Below are positions 1,430-20,616 of a stretch of 64,000 nucleotides of DNA, one piece after another. The stretch lies in assembly GCF_013315695.1 (NCBI RefSeq), contig NZ_CP054353.1. One strand, written 5' to 3'. Below the pieces are notes generated by a model. That model worked only from the letters and a program-made list of their open reading frames with translations, did not search any database and was not told the DNA's origin. The DNA comes from Escherichia coli (lineage in GTDB: Bacteria > Pseudomonadota > Gammaproteobacteria > Enterobacterales > Enterobacteriaceae). The position numbers were made by a program, and so were the translations under genes. The first letter of the stretch is position 1; each line of letters opens with the position of its first letter.

Positions 1430-1775
1430 GATGGTGTTAACTCCAGTCATCGCTGGCACTACCACTGCTGGTTCAGAGTTAAAAAAAACTATGATTTTTT
1501 TCATGATGTTACCGTAGTATGTGAGTACCCATCGAATAGACACCAAGCAAAAAAGCTCCCGAAGGAGCCTTCATTTTCACTTTTTTAAATCCAACGACAG
1601 ACGGCTGGCATTTAAGTATTGTGAAATATTATCAAATGTAATCATCATTGATTTACAAAAGATACATTTTGCCCCGAAAGGATTCATGTCAGAAACATCA
1701 AAAGATGATGTTCTATACTGGGAACCATGACAACACGGGCATCTAAAGTGAATATGGTTTGTAATATTGTCTACC

Positions 1776-1988
1776 TCAAAGCGCCACTACATGAACAGCG
1801 GCAGGACCTTTAGGTCCGTTCTCAATACCAAATTCAACTTCCTGATTCTCAGTTAATGTTTTGAAATCGTTGCTCTGAATTGCTGAGAAATGGACAAACA
1901 CATCTTTGCTGCCATCTTTCGGCGTGATGAAACCAAAACCTTTTTCAGGGTTAAACCATTTCACTAAACCAGTCATTTTGTTAGACAT
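1776..1988 (-). CDS. cspI: Cold-shock protein CspI (CspA family)
   Basis: 70-aa [41 protein letters not shown]... with the RNP1/RNP2 motifs of the CspA family. Confidence 0.9.
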
Positions 1989-2353
1989 AATTATTACCTT
2001 TTGAAGAAATTAGCCCTTGGGCAGAATGGTCCGAAAAAAAATATCAGAGAGAAAAACCAACAAGGAAATCTCAAGAGGTACAAATAATAAAATTATAACA
2101 ATGACTGCTTCAGATAAATTTGTAACAAACCAGAACACCATTAACGCATGATTAACCACCCATAGCAAGGATTACTTTTGTAAAGAAAAACACAGCAATG
2201 AAAGAATAGCTTTATTTATTAATAAAACGTGTCATTCTGATTAAGACCTTTTATCTTACCCTTAAGATTTCAGGAATTTTGGCTCATGGAAGAGTCCTTT
2301 TTATTTAAATTTTACATTCCGCGATGTAAATGTTCCGATTTAATATTACCCTA

Positions 2354-3373
<1,020 letters not shown>

Positions 3374-3377
<4 letters not shown>

Positions 3378-3685
3378 AGATATTTATGATGAGGACGCTC
3401 GTGCTTATTGGCAGGATTTTCAATCTTAAAGGAGTACTGATGCTGCAGATAAGACTCAACTTTTTCTGACAATTTTTCTGCTACTTCCAGGAAGACTTGC
3501 CGGACGCTCCTTCTGGCTGCTGCCTCATAAAACTCCAGCGCAGCTCCTTCAACACGGTCCATGGCGACATCCAGGTCAAAAATTTCACCGTCAAAGCGTT
3601 CTTTGTCCTGTAAGGCTACAGTTACCGTAACTTTATTCTCAAAATTACGGACTCCTTTCACAACCAGTTCATAGTCTTGAGTCAT
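3374..3685 (-). CDS. ydfR: Prophage protein YdfR (function unknown)
   Basis: 103-aa ORF between the holin and lysozyme genes, overlapping the lysozyme start. Confidence 0.65.
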
Positions 3686-3905: not shown

Positions 3906-4124
3906 ATCCTCACCCCGATGTACACGGATGGTGCAATATGTTTGAAAAGCTCGGAGTCTACGGGGTAGTTTTGACAGCACACGTTGTTCTCAACGGCGCT
4001 AAAAAAACATACACATTAAAAATGTGGGTAATTATTTTGAAAGAAAGTCATATATAAAATAATAATACGAGAAATGTTTTCATATTTAGTGTACTGTATA
4101 CGGCCATTTATACAGGAAAAGCCT

Positions 4125-4295
4125 ATGTCAGAACGTAAAAACTCAAAATCACGCCGTAATTATCTCGTTAAATGTTCCTGCCCAAACTGCACCCAAGAGT
4201 CAGAACACAGTTTTTCAAGAGTACAAAAAGGTGCCCTTTTGATCTGCCCTCATTGCAACAAAGTATTCCAGACAAATCTTAAAGCTGTAGCCTGA
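4125..4295 (+). CDS. Small zinc-ribbon protein (C-x2-C ... C-x2-C), hypothetical; possibly ynfU
   Basis: ORF 4074..4295; internal start MSERKNSKSRRNYLVKCSCPNCTQESEHSFSRVQKGALLICPHCNKVF preceded by AGGAAAA; two CxxC pairs. Confidence 0.35.
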   Translation: MSERKNSKSRRNYLVKCSCPNCTQESEHSFSRVQKGALLICPHCNKVFQTNLKAVA

Positions 4296-4350
4296 TTGAT
4301 TTTATTAGTAACAAGTATTTTTTATATTTTAATAATATATTTAAAGCAGA

Positions 4351-4377
4351 TAATAAAAAACCCGCCTGAGCGGGTTT
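4351..4377 (-). terminator. Rho-independent terminator (hairpin aaacccgc-ctga-gcgggttt plus T-run on minus strand) downstream of cspB
   Basis: Perfect 8-bp stem read directly; the minus strand continues with TTTTTTTATT. Confidence 0.6.
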
Positions 4378-4658
4378 GAGATTGTGGTGCTTTTTGTGGG
4401 AGTCATCCACTTACGCACTTTGTTTTGCCATGCCAGCAGTTAGCTTCTGCTGTAAAACTATTCATGCAGCAAACCTGCACTTCACCACAATGGTTAGCAT
4501 ACTTTTCCTGATTAAGATTTTGCCAAATATGCTAGCCATTGTTTCATGTATTGGACCTCCTTACTTTTTATTAAAGAGATCCAATATTCACTACTCTGTC
4601 CGTATCTCTACTCAGGCATCAGCCTTCTTCGTTATCGTATACAGACGAGCGATGAATT

Positions 4659-4874
4659 TTAATCAGTAATGATGACATTTGCTGCTGCAGGACCTTTAGC
4701 ACCACTCTCTATAGAGAAGGTAACCTTTTGACCTTCAAATAAGGTTCGATAATTATCATTCTGAATCGCAGAAAAATGCACAAACACATCTTTACTACCA
4801 TCAACAGGAGAAATAAAGCCGAAACCTTTATCAGCGTTAAACCATTTTACTAAACCAGTCATTTTATTTGACAT
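4659..4874 (-). CDS. cspB: Cold-shock protein CspB (CspA family)
   Basis: 71-aa [56 protein letters not shown]... Confidence 0.9.
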
Positions 4875-5174
4875 TCTACATTCCTTAACTTGAGCCTTTC
4901 GGCATAAATGGTTTGCATAACAGAAACGACTTCGTACTTAATTGGAGAGACTCAAAGAAGGAATAAGTGAATAACACCTGAAATGAGAACTGCTTTAGTA
5001 AACTACTTCGTATATCGTCTGTTCTTCAAACCGACGCAATCATTAACGCATAGTTGAACATATGAAGCAATGTTTATTTTAGACATCCAGCCATCTTCAA
5101 CCCCATCAAAAAACTATAGCTTTCTTCAGGAACGTGTGTATAGTGCGCCAAGTTATCAGTATTAAGGAATTTTT

Positions 5175-10429: not shown

Positions 10430-11900
10430 CAGAAACGCGACTTAAGAATCTACCCTATGAATGGATATGCACTCAACCGAATCGATCTTGGTTTCAATCT
10501 TTTTTATCGGGATCAGGCTTCTTTTTAGGTAACTTCGGGGGCTTAACTTGCTGATGACTTTGCGTTCGGCGCGTAAGCCAGGGATGGTCAGCTTTAGGTT
10601 TAACATAGTATTTTGAGCGTAAATCAATACGGGCATTATCCACTCGTTCATGGACACTCTTTTCATCATCCAGTGGTATAGGCTCCGGGCCATCAACATA
10701 CTTTTCCCAGCCCAGCGCTTTCCCGTCATACAGAACGTTAATTTCACCGTCAAAGTTCTCGCATACAGTAACAACCGAATGCCTAAGTCGATATCCCCGG
10801 CCCTCACTGCGTACCTGAAACGCACTGCTTTTGTACTGGAAAGTGAGATTTTTAGACAGAACGCGCTTCGCCTGTAGGCTGAAGATATAACCCAGTTCCT
10901 CTTCAGAATGGTGCACATCAAGATGAGCATTATCAGTAGTACGAGGCGACGTAGCGAACCGGTTGTTATAGGCTTCAATAAAGGTCGGCAACCATGCATT
11001 TGCTGTTTCAATATCACTGATATTCTGAAGCCGCATTTCTTTGACCAGCCTGTCCTGTAGTGTCTGATTGGCGCGCTCTACCCGCCCTTTTGCCTGCGGG
11101 CTGTTGGCATGGATTGGCTCGATGCCCAGTGTCTTTATCGCACGAGTGAACTGGGTCAGCTCACCTTCCCGCTCTGGGTTATTTACCCTGAATATACTGT
11201 GTCTATCAGAGTAGAGAGCGAGCGGTACGCCATGATCATTAAGGTAACCCCGGAGGGTTTCCATGTAAGCCCGGGTTGTTTCAGCAGGCACAAAACGCAA
11301 CGCCATCAACGCACTGGTGGCATCATCAATGAAAACGATCAGTGTACATCTGGGGCCTCGATTTTCAAACCAGTCATGAGGTGAGCCATCAATCTGGATC
11401 AGTTCACCGTAAGATGGTCGTCGCATGCGGCGTTGATATATACGGGCAATTTTACGACGGCGTTCACGCCATAACCCCTCTTCTATCATCCACTTTCTGA
11501 GAGTTTCAACGGATAAAGATAAACCGTGTATCTCGCGCAATTTTTCGCACGCAAACGTAGGTCCAAAATCAGCGTAACGGCCTTTGAGGAGTGAAATTAC
11601 TGTTGCTCTGAATTCAGTAGAAAAGGAATTATTAGGACGCTTTCCACGTCGGTGGGAAACCAGAGCAGAAGGCCCTTCATTTCTATACCGTTGCACCAGA
11701 CGTTTAACCTGCCGAATAGAAATGCCAATGCGTGCCGCAGCTTGTTCCTGAATAATCTGAAGTCGGTGGAGTTCCTTATGACTCATCGTAACAGTCTCTT
11801 TGATCATGAAAAATCCCCCAGAGAATTGTCTGGGGACATTTTAGAATGGTTCAAAGGGGACATTACAGCTTGGTGTTAACAATAGCCTGCTTCTCCGTGC
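10430..11900 (-). mobile_element. Probable insertion sequence carrying a single DDE (rve-type) transposase; boundaries approximate
   Basis: Single 437-aa transposase ORF flanked by non-coding DNA with GGGGACA-type repeats and a candidate imperfect terminal repeat (AGGCTATT... at ~10330 and ~11885); ends not resolved. Confidence 0.4.
10494..11807 (-). CDS. DDE transposase, integrase-core (rve) type with N-terminal HTH (IS481/ISNCY-like)
   Basis: 437-aa ORF with N-terminal HTH (AARIGISIRQVKRLVQRY) and core ...IDGSPHDWF...FIDDATS...YSDRHSIF...SPQAKGRVERANQTLQDRL... Confidence 0.6.
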   Translation of the reverse strand: MIKETVTMSHKELHRLQIIQEQAAARIGISIRQVKRLVQRYRNEGPSALVSHRRGKRPNNSFSTEFRATVISLLKGRYADFGPTFACEKLREIHGLSLSVETLRKWMIEEGLWRERRRKIARIYQRRMRRPSYGELIQIDGSPHDWFENRGPRCTLIVFIDDATSALMALRFVPAETTRAYMETLRGYLNDHGVPLALYSDRHSIFRVNNPEREGELTQFTRAIKTLGIEPIHANSPQAKGRVERANQTLQDRLVKEMRLQNISDIETANAWLPTFIEAYNNRFATSPRTTDNAHLDVHHSEEELGYIFSLQAKRVLSKNLTFQYKSSAFQVRSEGRGYRLRHSVVTVCENFDGEINVLYDGKALGWEKYVDGPEPIPLDDEKSVHERVDNARIDLRSKYYVKPKADHPWLTRRTQSHQQVKPPKLPKKKPDPDKKD

Positions 11901-12141
11901 CTTTCGGCACGTAAGAGGCTAACCTACATGTGTCTAGCATGAAATTGGCCTCAGATTAATGTTAAGCGTCTTGCAGGACGCGTAATGTTAACTGGGGCTT
12001 TTCTCTATCTGCCGTTGGTGTCCATGCCCGAGGCAGATAGCCTCAAGCACCCGCAGTCATTCTACTTAACTAAGATTTCCCCGCAAACCGTTTTTGTCCA
12101 GCACAGTAAATATCCAACTAAACCAATGGAGTTCGCTGTAT

Positions 12142-12321
12142 TTACCGCCAGTATTCAATGCACATGACCGCCATGAACACCCCTAAAAAAAGGGCATTTA
12201 TATATCCAAATATTAATATCAAAACATCAACTTTTTCCATATACCTTGCTGTGAAGATGATGGGCATACATGATGCGAACAACCAGAACGCAACAAACAA
12301 AAACTGCAATGCGTTTTTCAT
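12142..12321 (-). CDS. Small hydrophobic two-TM protein (59 aa), hypothetical
   Basis: ORF 12142..12360; internal start MKNALQFLFVAFWLFASCMPIIFTARYMEKVDVLILIFGYINALFLGVFMAVMCIEYWR preceded by a strong AGGAGG Shine-Dalgarno. Confidence 0.4.
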   Translation of the reverse strand: MKNALQFLFVAFWLFASCMPIIFTARYMEKVDVLILIFGYINALFLGVFMAVMCIEYWR

Positions 12322-13473
12322 TATTCCTCCTACAATCAATGTGCAATTACATTTAAACACACCTCAATTTGGCCGGACATATAAATATCTAAACCAGAAA
12401 AAATCACTTACATAGCGTTACAAACTCTTTAGTCTAAAGGTTCATCGTAAAACATTCCCCATACTTATCAGTCCGTTCCGCGCCAGGTAGCTCATTGCCT
12501 TATCTGGCAACCTGTAATCAGGTTTCCGCTTTTTCAGTTGGCTGGTCGTTTAACCGACATAGTTAATCCATTAATCTAGTTGCCGGATGTTGGTGGATTT
12601 TCGCGTTTTAGTTGTTCATAAAAGTGCACAGCTTTAACCAGTTCTTCTGATGTAACTGGGACTGGTGAGGCAGTGAATAAGGCCTGAATTTGATAGTTCG
12701 GCCTGTCGTTACAATCCTCTTTTTTCGGTACATATTTCCAGTCACCAGACCACTACTTCCCCTGAAAGTCCGTAACGCCTTTTTTTACGTAGCGATATCG
12801 CCATGCCACTGGTTTTGCTTGCCCCGCCGTTTCATGCCCTTCCTGATAATTAATCTCGCTCATTCATCGCCCCACTCATCACAATATGCTTCGACCGGAG
12901 TTTTTCCCGCTTCATAGTCATCACGCTAGGATTCGACATCAGCAGCACTTCCACCGCGTAACTCACCATAGTCCATTAATAGTTCATCCCGCTCTTCAAA
13001 ACTGATGTTATATTTAGCTGAACAAAAATCAGCCACTTTGTTCTTCCTCATCGTCTTTTATTTCGTGGTATGAGTAATTGCAGTAGTTAAAGAAAATTTC
13101 TTATGCTCCGTCATGAATTTCCTCAGGTGTTGCGTCATCGTCCACTTCGAATACATCCTCAAAATCTCCACCAGCTATTCCCGTTTCAATAATAATTTTG
13201 AACTTTCGCATTTCACTACCGCCCTTTCGGGCGGCCTCCTGATGTTCTGAGGGTGCAGAAATCCATCCGGTTAAGGATTAAATTTTATTTACAGAACTGA
13301 ATTTAATTATTCAGATATACGTATCTGTAGCCTTACGAATCTACTCACTGGATGCCTCTTTCATAAAAATAATCCAGTGGGTTTTATCGTTTTTTCCCTG
13401 TTCGTTGACAGATAACAGGTTTTCTGTCTGTCAGTGCCAGAATCTGGCTTACCGGTATTTGCGTTTCATTCCA

Positions 13474-13830
13474 TTAAAAAATCAGAACGCCGTGCGGCCT
13501 CAACACCCGAAAGGCTTCTTTAAATCTCTGTCGCGAATCATCACGCCAGGCATCTTTATTCAGCCGTCCATATTTCTTTCCCATCCAGGCGTTATCACCA
13601 ACACTCTCAAGATGCGGAGGGTCTAATACAACCATCGAAAAAGATGCGTCTGCAAATGATAATGCACGAAAATCTGCGATAATGTCAGGGCTGATAATCA
13701 AGCGTCTCCCATTGCGTAATGTGTATCCTTCTTTTCTGATATCGCTGAATATCGCCCGTTCGTCAGACTTATCGAACCAGAACATGCGGCTGCCACAGCA
13801 CATATCAAGAATGGTTGCCGGTGCACTCAC
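13474..13830 (-). CDS. DNA methyltransferase-like protein, probably C-terminally truncated
   Basis: 118-aa ORF with SAM-binding-like motif ILDMCCGS and catalytic-like motif VVLDPPH; ends abruptly after PHGVLIF. Confidence 0.4.
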   Translation of the reverse strand: MSAPATILDMCCGSRMFWFDKSDERAIFSDIRKEGYTLRNGRRLIISPDIIADFRALSFADASFSMVVLDPPHLESVGDNAWMGKKYGRLNKDAWRDDSRQRFKEAFRVLRPHGVLIF

Positions 13831-14249
13831 TGCGCCACGTCCTGAAAATTACCCTGATAGAAAGCCAGTATGCGCTGCATAACTTCGCTCTTCCGGCACT
13901 CGCGACAGATTATGTTTAGGCGACTGTCGTAGCGACGTATTTCTCCGTCAGGTGATGACCAGATAAGGTCCGGATCAACCACAGCAGGTTTCTTCACCTT
14001 TGCCCTCGAGAGTTTTTTGCGGGCGTTTTGCCAGTCCTTACGCGCCTGTTCAGAGGGGAATAACCCGTAGCCGGAGTTGTATACATCGCCACTGGCTACC
14101 AGCTCTCTGGCAAGAACGCTCATCAGATATCTAGTCGCACCTGTTTTAGCTTCCAGTTGCCGTAACGTCTCACGGCCGCTCTGGCGCACGAGTTCCACCA
14201 CCTGCCATTTAATTTTTTCCCGCTCTTCTTGTGTAAAAACTTTTGCCAC
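13827..14249 (-). CDS. Hypothetical phage early-region protein (140 aa)
   Basis: ORF between the replication-initiator-like gene and the methyltransferase-like gene, overlapping start/stop; no family recognised. Confidence 0.35.
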   Translation of the reverse strand: MAKVFTQEEREKIKWQVVELVRQSGRETLRQLEAKTGATRYLMSVLARELVASGDVYNSGYGLFPSEQARKDWQNARKKLSRAKVKKPAVVDPDLIWSSPDGEIRRYDSRLNIICRECRKSEVMQRILAFYQGNFQDVAQ

Positions 14250-16054: not shown

Positions 16055-16462
16055 ATGGAAACAAAAAATTTAACTATCGGCGAACGCATCAGGTATCGTC
16101 GGAAAAACCTCAAACACACCCAAAGGTCTCTTGCTAAAGCCCTGAAAATCTCCCATGTGTCTGTATCACAATGGGAACGGGGTGATAGTGAACCTACAGG
16201 GAAGAACCTTTTTGCCCTCAGCAAAGTATTGCAATGCTCACCAACATGGATTCTATTTGGCGATGAAGACAAGCAACCAACACCACCTGTTGAGAAGCCA
16301 GTTGCCTTATCCCCCAAAGAACTAGAGCTCCTTGAGCTGTTTAATGCACTGCCAGAATCAGAACAGGATACCCAGCTCGCCGAAATGCGAGCTCGAGTAA
16401 AAAACTTCAATAAACTCTTTGAAGAATTACTAAAAGCCCGTCAGCGGACAAATAAAAGATAA
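16055..16462 (+). CDS. dicA: DicA, HTH repressor of the dicB operon
   Basis: 135-aa ORF METKNLTIGERIRYRRKNLKHTQRSLAKALKISHVSVSQWERG... (Xre-type HTH). Confidence 0.9.
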   Translation: METKNLTIGERIRYRRKNLKHTQRSLAKALKISHVSVSQWERGDSEPTGKNLFALSKVLQCSPTWILFGDEDKQPTPPVEKPVALSPKELELLELFNALPESEQDTQLAEMRARVKNFNKLFEELLKARQRTNKR

Positions 16463-16534
16463 CATCATCAATGAGTTATCTTTTACCACATCAATTATGT
16501 TAGCTATAGCATACAAAATCACTTGACCGATATG

Positions 16535-16548
16535 TTAGTCATGGCTAA
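16535..16548. promoter_or_regulatory. Third copy of the DicA-operator-like palindrome (TTAGTCATGGCTAA) upstream of ydfA/dicB operon
   Basis: Same palindrome family as in the dicA-dicC intergenic region. Confidence 0.5.
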
Positions 16549-16628
16549 TCTTGTTTGCATCAACACACCGCACGGTGTTCTCAGCAAACAGTTCCGCTAC
16601 CCCAGCGTTAAGGGGAAATGAGGTCAGC

Positions 16629-16784
16629 ATGGATACTATCGATCTTGGCAACAACGAATCTCTGGTGTACGGCGTGTTTCCAAACCAGGACGGCACGTTC
16701 ACCGCAATGACGTATACCAAAAGCAAAACGTTTAAAACCGAAAATGGTGCCCGTCGCTGGCTGGAAAGAAACTCAGGTGAGTGA
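16629..16784 (+). CDS. ydfA: YdfA (51 aa)
   Basis: Internal start MDTIDLGNNESLVYGVFPNQDGTFTAMTYTKSK... within ORF 16551..16784. Confidence 0.7.
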   Translation: MDTIDLGNNESLVYGVFPNQDGTFTAMTYTKSKTFKTENGARRWLERNSGE

Positions 16785-16785
16785 T

Positions 16786-16914
16786 ATGGATTTCGACACA
16801 ATCATGGAAAAGGCTTACGAAGAATACTTCGAAGGCCTTGCCGAAGGCGAAGAAGCTCTCAGCTTCAGTGAGTTTAAACAGGCGCTTTCCAGTTCGGCAA
16901 AATCTAACGGCTGA
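16786..16914 (+). CDS. ydfB: YdfB (42 aa)
   Basis: Manual translation MDFDTIMEKAYEEYFEGLAEGEEALSFSEFKQALSSSAKSNG-stop. Confidence 0.65.
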   Translation: MDFDTIMEKAYEEYFEGLAEGEEALSFSEFKQALSSSAKSNG

Positions 16915-16943
16915 TAAGCGAAACAGCACCGCGAGGAATCAGT

Positions 16944-17162
16944 ATGCAGAAACGAGAACCCGTCATCATCGCGCCAGACTATACCGATGATGAACTTTAT
17001 GAGTGGATGCGCCAGAAAATTAATGCAGCGCAGGATCTGAAATGGGCTAATGAAGCCAGGGCTAAGCAGGCTGAAAATCTGTTCTCTCTGGAGCAGGATA
17101 TCACCAGGCTGGAAAAAGCAGCGGCATTAAGCATTGCCAGAATGATTACATACCCGCGTTAA
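16944..17162 (+). CDS. ydfC: YdfC (72 aa)
   Basis: ORF MQKREPVIIAPDYTDDELYEWMRQKINAAQDLKWANEARAK... Confidence 0.75.
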   Translation: MQKREPVIIAPDYTDDELYEWMRQKINAAQDLKWANEARAKQAENLFSLEQDITRLEKAAALSIARMITYPR

Positions 17163-17502
17163 TAGCTAACCAACGAAGCTAAGGTTGGTAATTAAGGAGT
17201 TCTCCACGGGTGAGGTGGAGTGCGTGCGCCGGACACGGGTGAGCATCCGGCACTGACAGTTTACTGAAAGGATATTTCCATGAAAAGTCAGACCATAACG
17301 CGAAAGCGCACGGCGAGGTAGCTGGTTCATAGATAGCCTGTCGTTAAATTTTCGTCGACCGTGCGCTTCCGGTTGTGGCAACCCGCGAAATGGCGCGGCG
17401 GTAAGTATGGCGGGGTTATTCCTTCCCCGTTGAGGACACCGGGTTGTCAGGTTGACCATACGCTTAAGTGACAACCCCGCTGCAACGCCCTCTGTTATCA
17501 AT

Positions 17503-17557
17503 TTTCTGGTGACGTTTGGCGGTATCAGTTTTACTCCGTGACTGCTCTGCCGCCCTT
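17503..17557 (+). ncRNA. dicF: DicF small regulatory RNA (anti-ftsZ)
   Basis: Sequence TTTCTGGTGACGTTTGGCGGTATCAGTTTTACTCCGTGACTGCTCTGCCGCCC followed by TTTTT matches DicF as I remember it; directly upstream of dicB. Confidence 0.8.
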
Positions 17558-18162: not shown

Positions 18163-19326
18163 TTGTTCATCCTTAAATCTGTCATGAGGTTAAAACAAAT
18201 GAGTAAAGTCTTTATTTGCGCCGCTATTCCTGACGAACTGGCAACAAGGGAAGAAGGCGCTGTGGCTGTAGCCACAGCCATTGAAGCTGGCGACGAACGC
18301 CGTGCTCGAGCAAAATTTCACTGGCAATTCCTGGAACATTATCCGGCTGCTCAGGACTGCGCTTATAAATTTATTGTCTGCGAGGATAAACCTGGCATAC
18401 CCCGCCCTGCCCTCGATTCATGGGATGCTGAATATATGCAGGAAAACCGCTGGGATGAGGAGTCTGCTTCTTTTGTCCCGGTTGAGACTGAATCCGATCC
18501 GATGAACGTCACTTTTGACAAGCTGGCCCCTGAAGTACAGAACGCTGTCATGGTTAAGTTCGACACATGTGAAAACATCACCGTTGATATGGTTATTAGC
18601 GCACAGGAATTGTTGCAGGAAGACATGGCAACATTCGACGGACATATCGTTGAAGCGTTGATGAAAATGCCAGAAGTTAACGCCATGTATCCGGAGCTTA
18701 AGCTGCATGCCATCGGGTGGGTTAAGCATAAATGTAAGCCTGGTGCCAAATGGCCCGAAATTCAGGCAGAGATGCGCATCTGGAAAAAACGTCGCGAAGG
18801 TGAACGTAAGGAAACCGGAAAATACACGTCTGTTATTGATCTCGCCCGCGCCAGAACCAATCAACAGCACAGTGAAAATTCAACAGGAAAAATCAGCCCG
18901 GTCATTGCTGCCATTCATCGCGAATACAAGCAGACATGGAAAACACTGGATGACGAACTGGCCTACGCTCTCTGGCCTGGTGATGTGGATGCCGGAAACA
19001 TTGACGGCAGCATCCATCGCTGGGCAAAAAATGAAGTTATCGACAACGACCGCGAAGACTGGAAGCGTATCTCGGCATCAATGCGCAAACAGCCTGATGC
19101 CCTTCGCTACGACCGCCAAACTATTTTTGGCCTTGTCCGTGAGCGTCCGATCGACATTCACAAAGATCCCGTAGCACTGAACAAATATATCTGCGAATAC
19201 CTGACGACAAAGGGCGTGTTTGAGAATGAAGAAACAGACCTGGGCACTGTTGATGTTCTCCAGTCATCAGAAACACAAACTGATGCAGTGGAAACTGAGT
19301 ATTTCCAGACATCTGTTATCACTTAA
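18163..19326 (+). pseudogene. ydfE: ydfE-like prophage gene whose 3-prime end runs into IS2 (C-terminus replaced by IS-derived codons)
   Basis: ORF continues 27 bp past the IS2 boundary at 19300 before stopping; true start uncertain (candidates at 18199 or 18403). Confidence 0.55.
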
Positions 19327-20202
19327 CCCATTACAAGCCCGCTGCCGCAGATATTCCCGTGGCGAGCGATAACCCAGCGCACTATGCGGATGCCATTCGT
19401 TATAATGCTCGAACGCCTCTGCAAGGTTCTTTGCTGCCGTTAACCCGTCTGGTTTGGGCATGATACTGATGTAGTCACGCTTTATCGTTTTCACGAAGCT
19501 CTCTGCTATTCCGTTACTCTCCGGACTCCGCACCGCCGTGTTCTTCGGTTCAAGTCCCAACATCCGGGCGAACTGGCGTGTTTCATTAGCCCGGTAGCAT
19601 GAACCATTATCCGTCAGCCACTCCACTGGAGACGACGGAAGATCGTTGCCGAAGCGGCGTTCCACCGCTCCCAGCATGACGTCCTGTACTGTTTCACTGT
19701 TGAAGCCGCCGGTAGTGACCGCCCAGTGCAGTGCCTCACGATCACTGCAGTCCAGCGCGAACGTGACACGCAGTCTCTCTCCGTTATCACAGCAGAACTC
19801 GAACCCGTCAGAGCACCATCGCTGATTGCTTTCTTTCACGGCCACTCTGCCTGTATGTGCCCGTTTCGATGGCGGTACAGCAGGTTTTCGCTCAAGCAAC
19901 AGCGCATTCTGGCGCATGATCCGGTAAACACGTTTGGCATTGATCGCAGGCATACCATCAAGTTCTGCCTGTCTGCGAAGCAGCGCCCATACCCGACGAT
20001 AACCATACGTGGGCAGCTCTCCGATAACATGGTGTATACGGAGAAGCACATCCGTATCATCAGTGTGACGACTGCGGCGGCCATCCATCCAGTCATCGGT
20101 TCGTCTGAGAATGACGTGCAACTGCGCACGCGACACCCGGAGACAACGGCTGACTAAGCTTACTCCCCATCCCCGGGCAATAAGGGCGCGTGCGCTATCC
20201 AC
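19267..20202 (-). CDS. insD: IS2 transposase OrfB (InsD) with ~10-codon C-terminal extension into flanking DNA
   Basis: 311-aa ORF; body matches InsD through ...[11 protein letters not shown], then continues [10 protein letters not shown] because the normal stop lies in the missing IS2 terminus. Confidence 0.85.
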
Positions 20203-20616
20203 TTTTTTGCCCGTCCATATTCAACGGCTTCTTTGAGGAGTTCATTTTCCATCGTTTTCTTGCCGAGCAGGCGCTGGAGTTCTTTAATCTGCTTCATGGC
20301 GGCAGCAAGTTCAGAGGCAGGAACAACCTGTTCTCCGGCGGCGACAGCAGTAAGACTTCCTTCCTGGTATTGCTTACGCCAGAGAAATAACTGGCTGGCT
20401 GCTACACCATGTTGCCGGGCAACGAGGGAGACCGTCATCCCCGGTTCAAAGCTCTGCTGAACAATTGCGATCTTTTCCTGTGTGGTACGCCGTCTGCGTT
20501 TCTCCGGTCCTAAGACATCAATCATCTGCTCTCCAATGACTAGTCTAAAAACTAGTATTAAGACTATCACTTAAATAAGTGATACTGGTTGTCTGGAGAT
20601 TCAGGGGGCCAGTCTA
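19300..20616 (-). mobile_element. IS2 copy (1317 bp), missing ~14 bp of one terminus
   Basis: insC/insD ORF pair; one end GGTTGTCTGGAGATTCAGGGGGCCAGTCTA intact at 20587-20616; the other end matches IS2 only from TATTTCCAGACATCTG inward. Confidence 0.8.
20160..20525 (-). CDS. insC: IS2 OrfA (InsC)
   Basis: ORF 20160..20570 with internal start [41 protein letters not shown]... Confidence 0.85.

Follow-up and report, generated by a model that had tools for sequence, protein, structure and literature searches.

The question raised by this locus is whether a short open reading frame (ORF) in an Escherichia coli prophage, which encodes 118 amino acid residues and carries the motifs of a methyltransferase, is a working gene or what is left of a longer one. 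We studied it in a window of 64,000 nucleotides of E. coli DNA (contig NZ_CP054353.1), in which an earlier note, made from the sequence alone, had described an orphan, apparently truncated and decaying DNA methyltransferase-like gene. With a probability of about 93%, we conclude that the ORF is the pseudogene remnant of a small (162 residues) prophage orphan class I SAM-dependent methyltransferase with a DPPH motif. The gene has most likely been disabled by a nonsense mutation from AAA to TAA at codon 119, whose lysine is invariant in the family, and by the insertion of 1 bp at a point 26 codons later. The feature is already known, either as a protein or as a pseudogene in RefSeq, and it is an ordinary decaying gene.

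The locus belongs to a defective lambdoid prophage of the Qin type in E. coli, within the early-right operon on the dicC side. According to the gene names that PGAP assigns in loci of 99.6-100% identity (ATCC 8739 and isolate AF3), the order from the lysis side (low coordinates) is ydfU, rem, hokD, relBE, ydfV, flxA, ydfW, a truncated ISNCY transposase gene, two pseudogenes, the methyltransferase remnant, the DUF977 gene, a replication-protein gene, a YdaT-like gene, dicC, dicA, and ydfABC, followed by dicF/dicB, ydfD, the exonuclease gene, xis, int, and rspB. The genes that characterize a Qin-type prophage were found, namely dicA-dicC-dicF-dicB with ydfA/B/C, relBE, hokD, rem, and ydfU, between rspB and the lysis/csp genes. 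The ORF listing of the window contains both DicA and DicC, and DicF was matched by Rfam (Table 1). The same scan detected two cspA-type thermoregulator leaders, which belong to the cspB- and cspF-side prophage genes. One locus aligns to the window as a single match of 99.6% identity, and its prophage exonuclease gene is split by IS2 (16313-17541 there); the equivalent in the window would be at about 19300-20540.

In the PGAP annotation of the identical loci, no restriction endonuclease gene is present within about 10 kb, and the recombination exonuclease, at a distance of about 5 kb, is the only nuclease nearby; the description of the gene as an orphan was therefore correct. On its upstream side is the DUF977 gene, and intact alleles of the methyltransferase likewise directly follow DUF977 in another E. 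coli prophage. The flank on the other side is decayed, and sister genomes contain two pseudogenes there (a frameshifted hypothetical gene and a DUF7167 gene interrupted by an internal stop). In the case of the ISNCY-family transposase ORF of 437 residues, PGAP accepts about 341 codons in the identical loci and flags the C-terminus as missing; the tail of the ORF probably reads into unrelated sequence. A match to the sok antitoxin RNA (104 bits, over the gathering cutoff of Rfam) is located about 75 bp from the start of this transposase ORF. It is adjoined by no intact hok ORF and looks like a hok/sok remnant.

Table 1. Positions of the methyltransferase remnant, its parts, and neighbouring features in the window.
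Feature	Position	Strand	Remark
cspA-type thermoregulator leader	1749-2134	-	Rfam scan
cspA-type thermoregulator leader	4643-5035	-	Rfam scan
ISNCY-family transposase ORF	10494-11807	-	437 aa
sok antitoxin RNA match	11881-12052	-	Rfam
Decayed downstream flank	11880-13340	-	no ORF >85 aa
Pseudogene in sister genomes	~12442-12863	-	frameshifted hypothetical
Pseudogene in sister genomes	~13029-13211	-	DUF7167, internal stop
Whole methyltransferase pseudogene	13341-13830	-	ancestrally 162 codons and stop, after repair of both lesions
Ancestral TAG stop	13341-13343	-	reached after removal of the surplus G
Untranslated C-terminal remnant	13341-13473	-	DNA alignments and translation through the stop
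Second stop	13384-13386	-	reached by +1 frameshift
GGG run with one surplus G	13396-13398	-	ACA-GGA in intact alleles; gap column in two DNA alignments
118-aa ORF (N-terminal 73% of the enzyme)	13474-13830	-	RefSeq WP_001310834.1 (ATCC 8739, isolate AF3)
Premature stop TAA, codon 119	13474-13476	-	AAA (Lys) in every intact relative aligned
Motif IV, DPPH, residues 70-73	13612-13623	-	direct sequence reading
Motif I, SAM-binding loop ILDMCCGS, residues 7-14	13789-13812	-	direct sequence reading
Upstream DUF977 / Ren-like gene	13827-14249	-	same order beside intact methyltransferase alleles
DicF sRNA	17504-17555	+	Rfam match

The ORF listing gives the 118-residue frame at exactly the boundaries reported before, with a GTG start that shares the sequence GTGA with the stop codon of the DUF977 gene; this kind of overlap between start and stop is the usual form of translational coupling in phage operons. 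The two motifs that had been read in the ORF are both present. In an alignment of 60 family sequences, L8, D9, C12, and G13 of the SAM-binding loop are conserved at 90-100%, and D70-P71-P72-H73 is identical in all 60. The hallmarks of the class I fold were also observed, as the glycine-rich loop LDMCCGS follows strand 1 and the invariant acidic residue D30 closes strand 2. The DPPH sequence agrees with the (D/N/S)PP(Y/F/W/H) form of motif IV in amino-(N-)methyltransferases, which marks N-methylation of an exocyclic amine.

Profile searches bore out the methyltransferase-like character proposed in the earlier note. The ORF matched PHROG 954 'DNA methyltransferase' (E=6.7e-58, profile positions 52-165 of 229), the PADLOC profile MTase_II PDLC03288 (E=4.5e-45, positions 3-122 of 169), and the PADLOC profile oMTase (orphan MTase) PDLC03730 (E=2.8e-33, positions 5-116 of 153). 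Judged from these sequence comparisons, the resemblance is far beyond chance. An intact homolog of 157 residues spans positions 3-161 of PDLC03288 and 5-152 of PDLC03730; as the profiles are covered by the ORF at the front only and by the intact homolog almost completely, the ORF is short at the C-terminus by about 39-44 codons. It thus does not reach the full length of the small phage methyltransferase domain (about 150-160 residues), which extends to a C-terminus of the form FKW...P...KTHW..F.K. Weak homology to the 743-position phage DNA methyltransferase profile phrog_67 was also found (E=8e-6).

The Pfam families N6_N4_Mtase and Dam, which had been suggested as a check, gave no match to the ORF even at E≤1, nor did MethyltransfD12, and the same was true of four intact homologs. 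The only Pfam matches of these five proteins were the generic class I families Methyltransf_11 and Methyltransf_25, at 17-25 bits; for the ORF, Methyltransf_11 was slightly over the cutoff (21.6 bits) and Methyltransf_25 was under it. An NCBIfam profile search gave generic matches below threshold only.

The intact relatives are themselves short, about 156-175 residues. They include those of Klebsiella phage ST846-OXA48phi9.2 (QBP07693.1, 160 residues), Erwinia phage 49 (156 residues), Pectobacterium phage ZF40 (gp20, 158 residues), a Stx2c phage (longest ORF, 175 residues), and E. coli (WP_024237025.1, 157 residues, and further alleles of 161-162 residues). The 162-residue E. coli allele (P0019) starts with the same N-terminus, MSAPATILD. 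Identity with residues 1-118 of the ORF is 81-85% in the intact E. coli and Stx2c-phage alleles, and about 80% over residues 6-118 in the Klebsiella phage allele. Among 1.84 billion representatives searched, there were 2024 relatives (representatives at 50% identity), in phages of Enterobacteria, Vibrio, Acinetobacter, Streptococcus, Listeria, Gordonia, and Porphyromonas. Because query residues about 5-157 are aligned in most of the best 150 of the 2024, the C-terminal 40 residues belong to the conserved domain. The ORF shares with this family of small prophage class I methyltransferases the LDxCCG and DPPH motifs and a position in the early operon that follows the replication and DUF977 genes, but the family members reach residue 157-162 or so, whereas the copy in the window has the nonsense codon at K119, the frameshift, and replacements at conserved sites.

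The missing C-terminus is still readable in the DNA. Beyond the TAA, which occupies column 369 in one DNA alignment to intact alleles and column 365 in a second, reading in the zero frame carries on as WNETQIPVSQILALTDRKPVICQRT, which is plainly homologous to the intact C-terminus. The zero frame remains open for 29 codons of a remnant that is about 44 codons long and directly downstream of the ORF. Twenty-six codons past codon 119, the surplus G of the GGG run causes a +1 frameshift that leads to the second stop; when it is removed, the reading proceeds as GKNDKTHWIIFMKEASSE to the ancestral stop. The earlier note was thus right that the C-terminus is absent from the ORF and that the gene is truncated, but only about a quarter of a protein of this family is lost, as opposed to half or more, and the corresponding sequence has remained in place.

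Several other causes of the short frame were ruled out. Truncation by a deletion or a nearby insertion sequence does not apply, because the C-terminal codons are still in the DNA. An enzyme split into two pieces is excluded by the lack of any ORF or start codon in the remnant; no ORF of at least 25 residues occurs on the minus strand within it. A terminator-like hairpin at 13508-13485 was considered not meaningful, as it consists of coding sequence and the run of T before the stop codon.

An assembly or sequencing error was likewise rejected, since the 121-nt segment over both lesion sites is at least 95% identical in about 474-480 genomes and all aligned alleles carry both lesions. The gene was matched in 900 of 5426 complete E. 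coli genomes. Over the lesion segment, identity was at least 99% in 380 genomes and 95-99% in a further 94; in all, about 480 of the 5426 have it at 95% identity or more, always as a single chromosomal copy. The exact 118-residue protein occurs on at least 1000 contigs. In strain 13E0767, a sister allele of 98.8% identity has the same TAA, the same surplus G, and a further stop in the remnant, and PGAP labels this copy (EC767_RS12630) as a 'frameshifted; internal stop' pseudogene. The sharing of the lesions with this sister allele and the presence of the protein on so many contigs indicate that the lesions are real and older than the split of the two aligned groups of Qin-type alleles. WP_001310834.1 and the PGAP pseudogene are at the same Qin locus, on DNA that is identical or 98.8% identical, with the same lesions and the same neighbours; they differ only in the label, protein or pseudogene.

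The same truncated allele (99.2%), with the same decayed flank and transposase, was observed in Escherichia phage PhiR42_1 (PV340562.1, from ECOR13; 4001-4357). Although deposited as a complete phage genome, PhiR42_1 appears to be essentially this Qin-type element. Another prophage, in E. coli O157:H7 strain 1130, carries a paralog of 88% identity (locus 3001-3474) with a stop of its own, TGG to TAG at W95. As these O157:H7 prophage copies were broken independently and PHROGs keeps fragments of about the size of this N-terminal part in families of their own (phrog_11564 and phrog_7811), decay of the gene is recurrent.

Any 118-residue product would keep the SAM-binding loop and DPPH and lose K119, W120, and P138. 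In the 60-sequence alignment, conservation beyond the stop is 100% at K119, 98% at W120, 100% at P138, and 95% at K157. An AlphaFold model of the intact 157-residue homolog (pLDDT 95.3, pTM 0.89) has strands at 7-9, 26-30, 64-69, 110-121, 140-144, and 150-156 and helices at 82-87, 95-109, and 127-131. On this model, a cut after residue 118 takes away helix E together with strands 140-144 and 150-156, the last two of the Rossmann sheet, and clips the end of strand 5, so that the complete seven-stranded sheet (strands 1-7) is not attained. From residue conservation and this predicted model of a homolog, we infer loss of function; the 118-residue product would most likely be unfolded and catalytically dead.

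The retained part has also changed. The replacements P58S, F69L, and G102R fall on sites conserved at 86-93%; S58 and R102 are absent from the 59 other aligned sequences, and L69 is present in one of them. The remnant additionally carries G141C. The allele in the window has 10 lineage-specific replacements, compared with 1-2 in intact E. coli alleles at a comparable synonymous distance, and pN/pS is 0.22-0.26 between it and the intact alleles, compared with 0.10 between two intact alleles. At about 0.25, the ratio is raised without being neutral, since a large share of the divergence is older than the lesions. These small numbers support relaxed constraint in the retained part but do not prove it. 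The decay put forward in the earlier note thus agrees with the nonsense and frameshift lesions, the replacements at conserved sites, the decayed flank, and the pseudogene call on the sister allele. Active homologs of about 118 residues, which would have spoken against it, did not appear; the relative of that length that was examined (P0138) is an allelic variant of the same nonsense allele.

Three observations count against a pseudogene: RefSeq lists the ORF as the ordinary protein WP_001310834.1 in many genomes, the N-terminal ORF is still open, with its motifs intact, in the two Qin-type alleles aligned, and pN/pS has not reached neutrality. The short form might be functional, either as a minimal methyltransferase or as a SAM-binding fragment put to a new use, such as that of a decoy or dominant-negative acting against enzymes of the same family from incoming phages. 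An ORF that is unbroken and almost unchanged across about 480 genomes and retains motifs I and IV would fit such a role, and the two fragment-sized PHROG families indicate that short forms recur. However, the near-identity comes from a single Qin-type locus in the chromosome and not from selection, and the short form is without the three invariant or nearly invariant residues and without two to three strands of the sheet, in addition to the replaced conserved sites in the part that is left. The downstream remnant can still be aligned, which points to recent decay and not to a designed short form, and the sister allele, which PGAP calls a pseudogene, has acquired another stop in the remnant. 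We consider a functional short form very improbable. Even less can be said for recoding, in which readthrough of the stop and a frameshift would yield the full-length enzyme from this allele. The TAA does end a superficially slippery run of T (A TTT TTT AA), and the sequence downstream stays in frame for 29 codons, but the -1 and +1 frames from the run terminate after 3 and 8 codons, respectively. A programmed frameshift at this run was ruled out on that ground and because the second lesion follows. It is the zero frame that restores the reading, so that readthrough at TAA-T and a -1 correction at the GGG run would both be needed, and the intact relatives have AAA and no surplus G, hence no conserved recoding signal. 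Recoding thus deserves practically no weight, and the pseudogene remains the reading that we adopt.

What the intact enzyme acted on is a separate matter. The ancestral enzyme would most likely have N-methylated a nucleobase of phage DNA during lytic growth and thereby evaded host restriction, as motif IV and the database classification suggest. The DNA substrate of the family is, in itself, a database label; the classification, the phrog_67 match, and the gene position together favour DNA and an anti-restriction role in lytic growth, on comparative grounds. The alternative is that the ancestral enzyme was an N-methyltransferase of RNA (tRNA or rRNA), of protein, or of a small molecule. Its nearest solved folds are generic or belong to RNA and protein enzymes (nucleomethylin, Bud23, Trm11, TrmN, and HemK/N6AMT1), with phosphatidylethanolamine N-methyltransferase also among them; the homolog model is that of a 157-residue protein without a target-recognition domain; the Pfam DNA-methylase families give no match; and our literature search found no experimental paper on the family. 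On the other hand, both PHROGs and PADLOC (the latter built from REBASE) class the family with DNA methyltransferases, the weak homology to phrog_67 is to a phage DNA methyltransferase profile, M.TaqI is among the Foldseek matches, the ZF40 copy reaches into the first bases of a large DNA methyltransferase gene, and the gene sits where temperate phages usually have their orphan methylase. A substrate other than DNA is accordingly the less likely choice, though one to be taken seriously. As this uncertainty concerns the function of the family only, the pseudogene verdict is unaffected.

In ZF40, gp20 (1498-1974 of the fetched locus) overlaps gp21, the large DNA methyltransferase gene (1971 onward, extending beyond the end of the fetched locus), by 4 nt; the two genes may be functionally paired in some phages. 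Assignment of the substrate by fold search was not possible, because the matches were only generic class I methyltransferases, and a PDB sequence search with the intact homolog gave nothing meaningful (best E=0.3, a beta-lactamase). Among the (D/N/S)PP(Y/F/W/H) amino-methyltransferases of solved structure, M.TaqI, Trm11, TrmN/TrmM, HemK/PrmC, and N6AMT1 have, like the family, a class I Rossmann fold in which motif IV follows strand 4, and the gamma-class enzymes have the same motif order, I then IV. The Dam-type methylases of T4/T2, lambdoid, and Stx phages are likewise orphans in the prophage early region, and the anti-restriction role would be shared with them; the corresponding profiles (MethyltransfD12, Dam, and N6_N4_Mtase), however, do not match the family of the window, and the Dam-type phage enzymes have about 240-280 residues, compared with 157-162. 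As general context, a paper on group A Streptococcus (PMC8597746) reports prophage orphan methylases to be common and usually silent.

A literature search found no paper on the Qin-prophage methyltransferase gene among those listed, and nothing on DUF977 together with a methyltransferase, on the DPPH motif, or on WP_001310834.1. We see only a slender chance that the DPPH family of about 157 residues represents the smallest known DNA methyltransferases, or non-DNA enzymes, and that at this locus the 118-residue fragment is expressed and exapted for SAM binding or interference. The intact family is unusually small, and its biochemistry is possibly worthwhile, though not at this locus. For the allele described here, the finding clears up an inconsistency in RefSeq, which lists one and the same allele as a 'protein' or as a 'pseudogene' depending on the genome. 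Inventories of the E. coli methylome or of restriction-modification systems should leave WP_001310834.1 out of their active methyltransferases, and the locus adds one dated example of gene decay to the Qin cryptic prophage.
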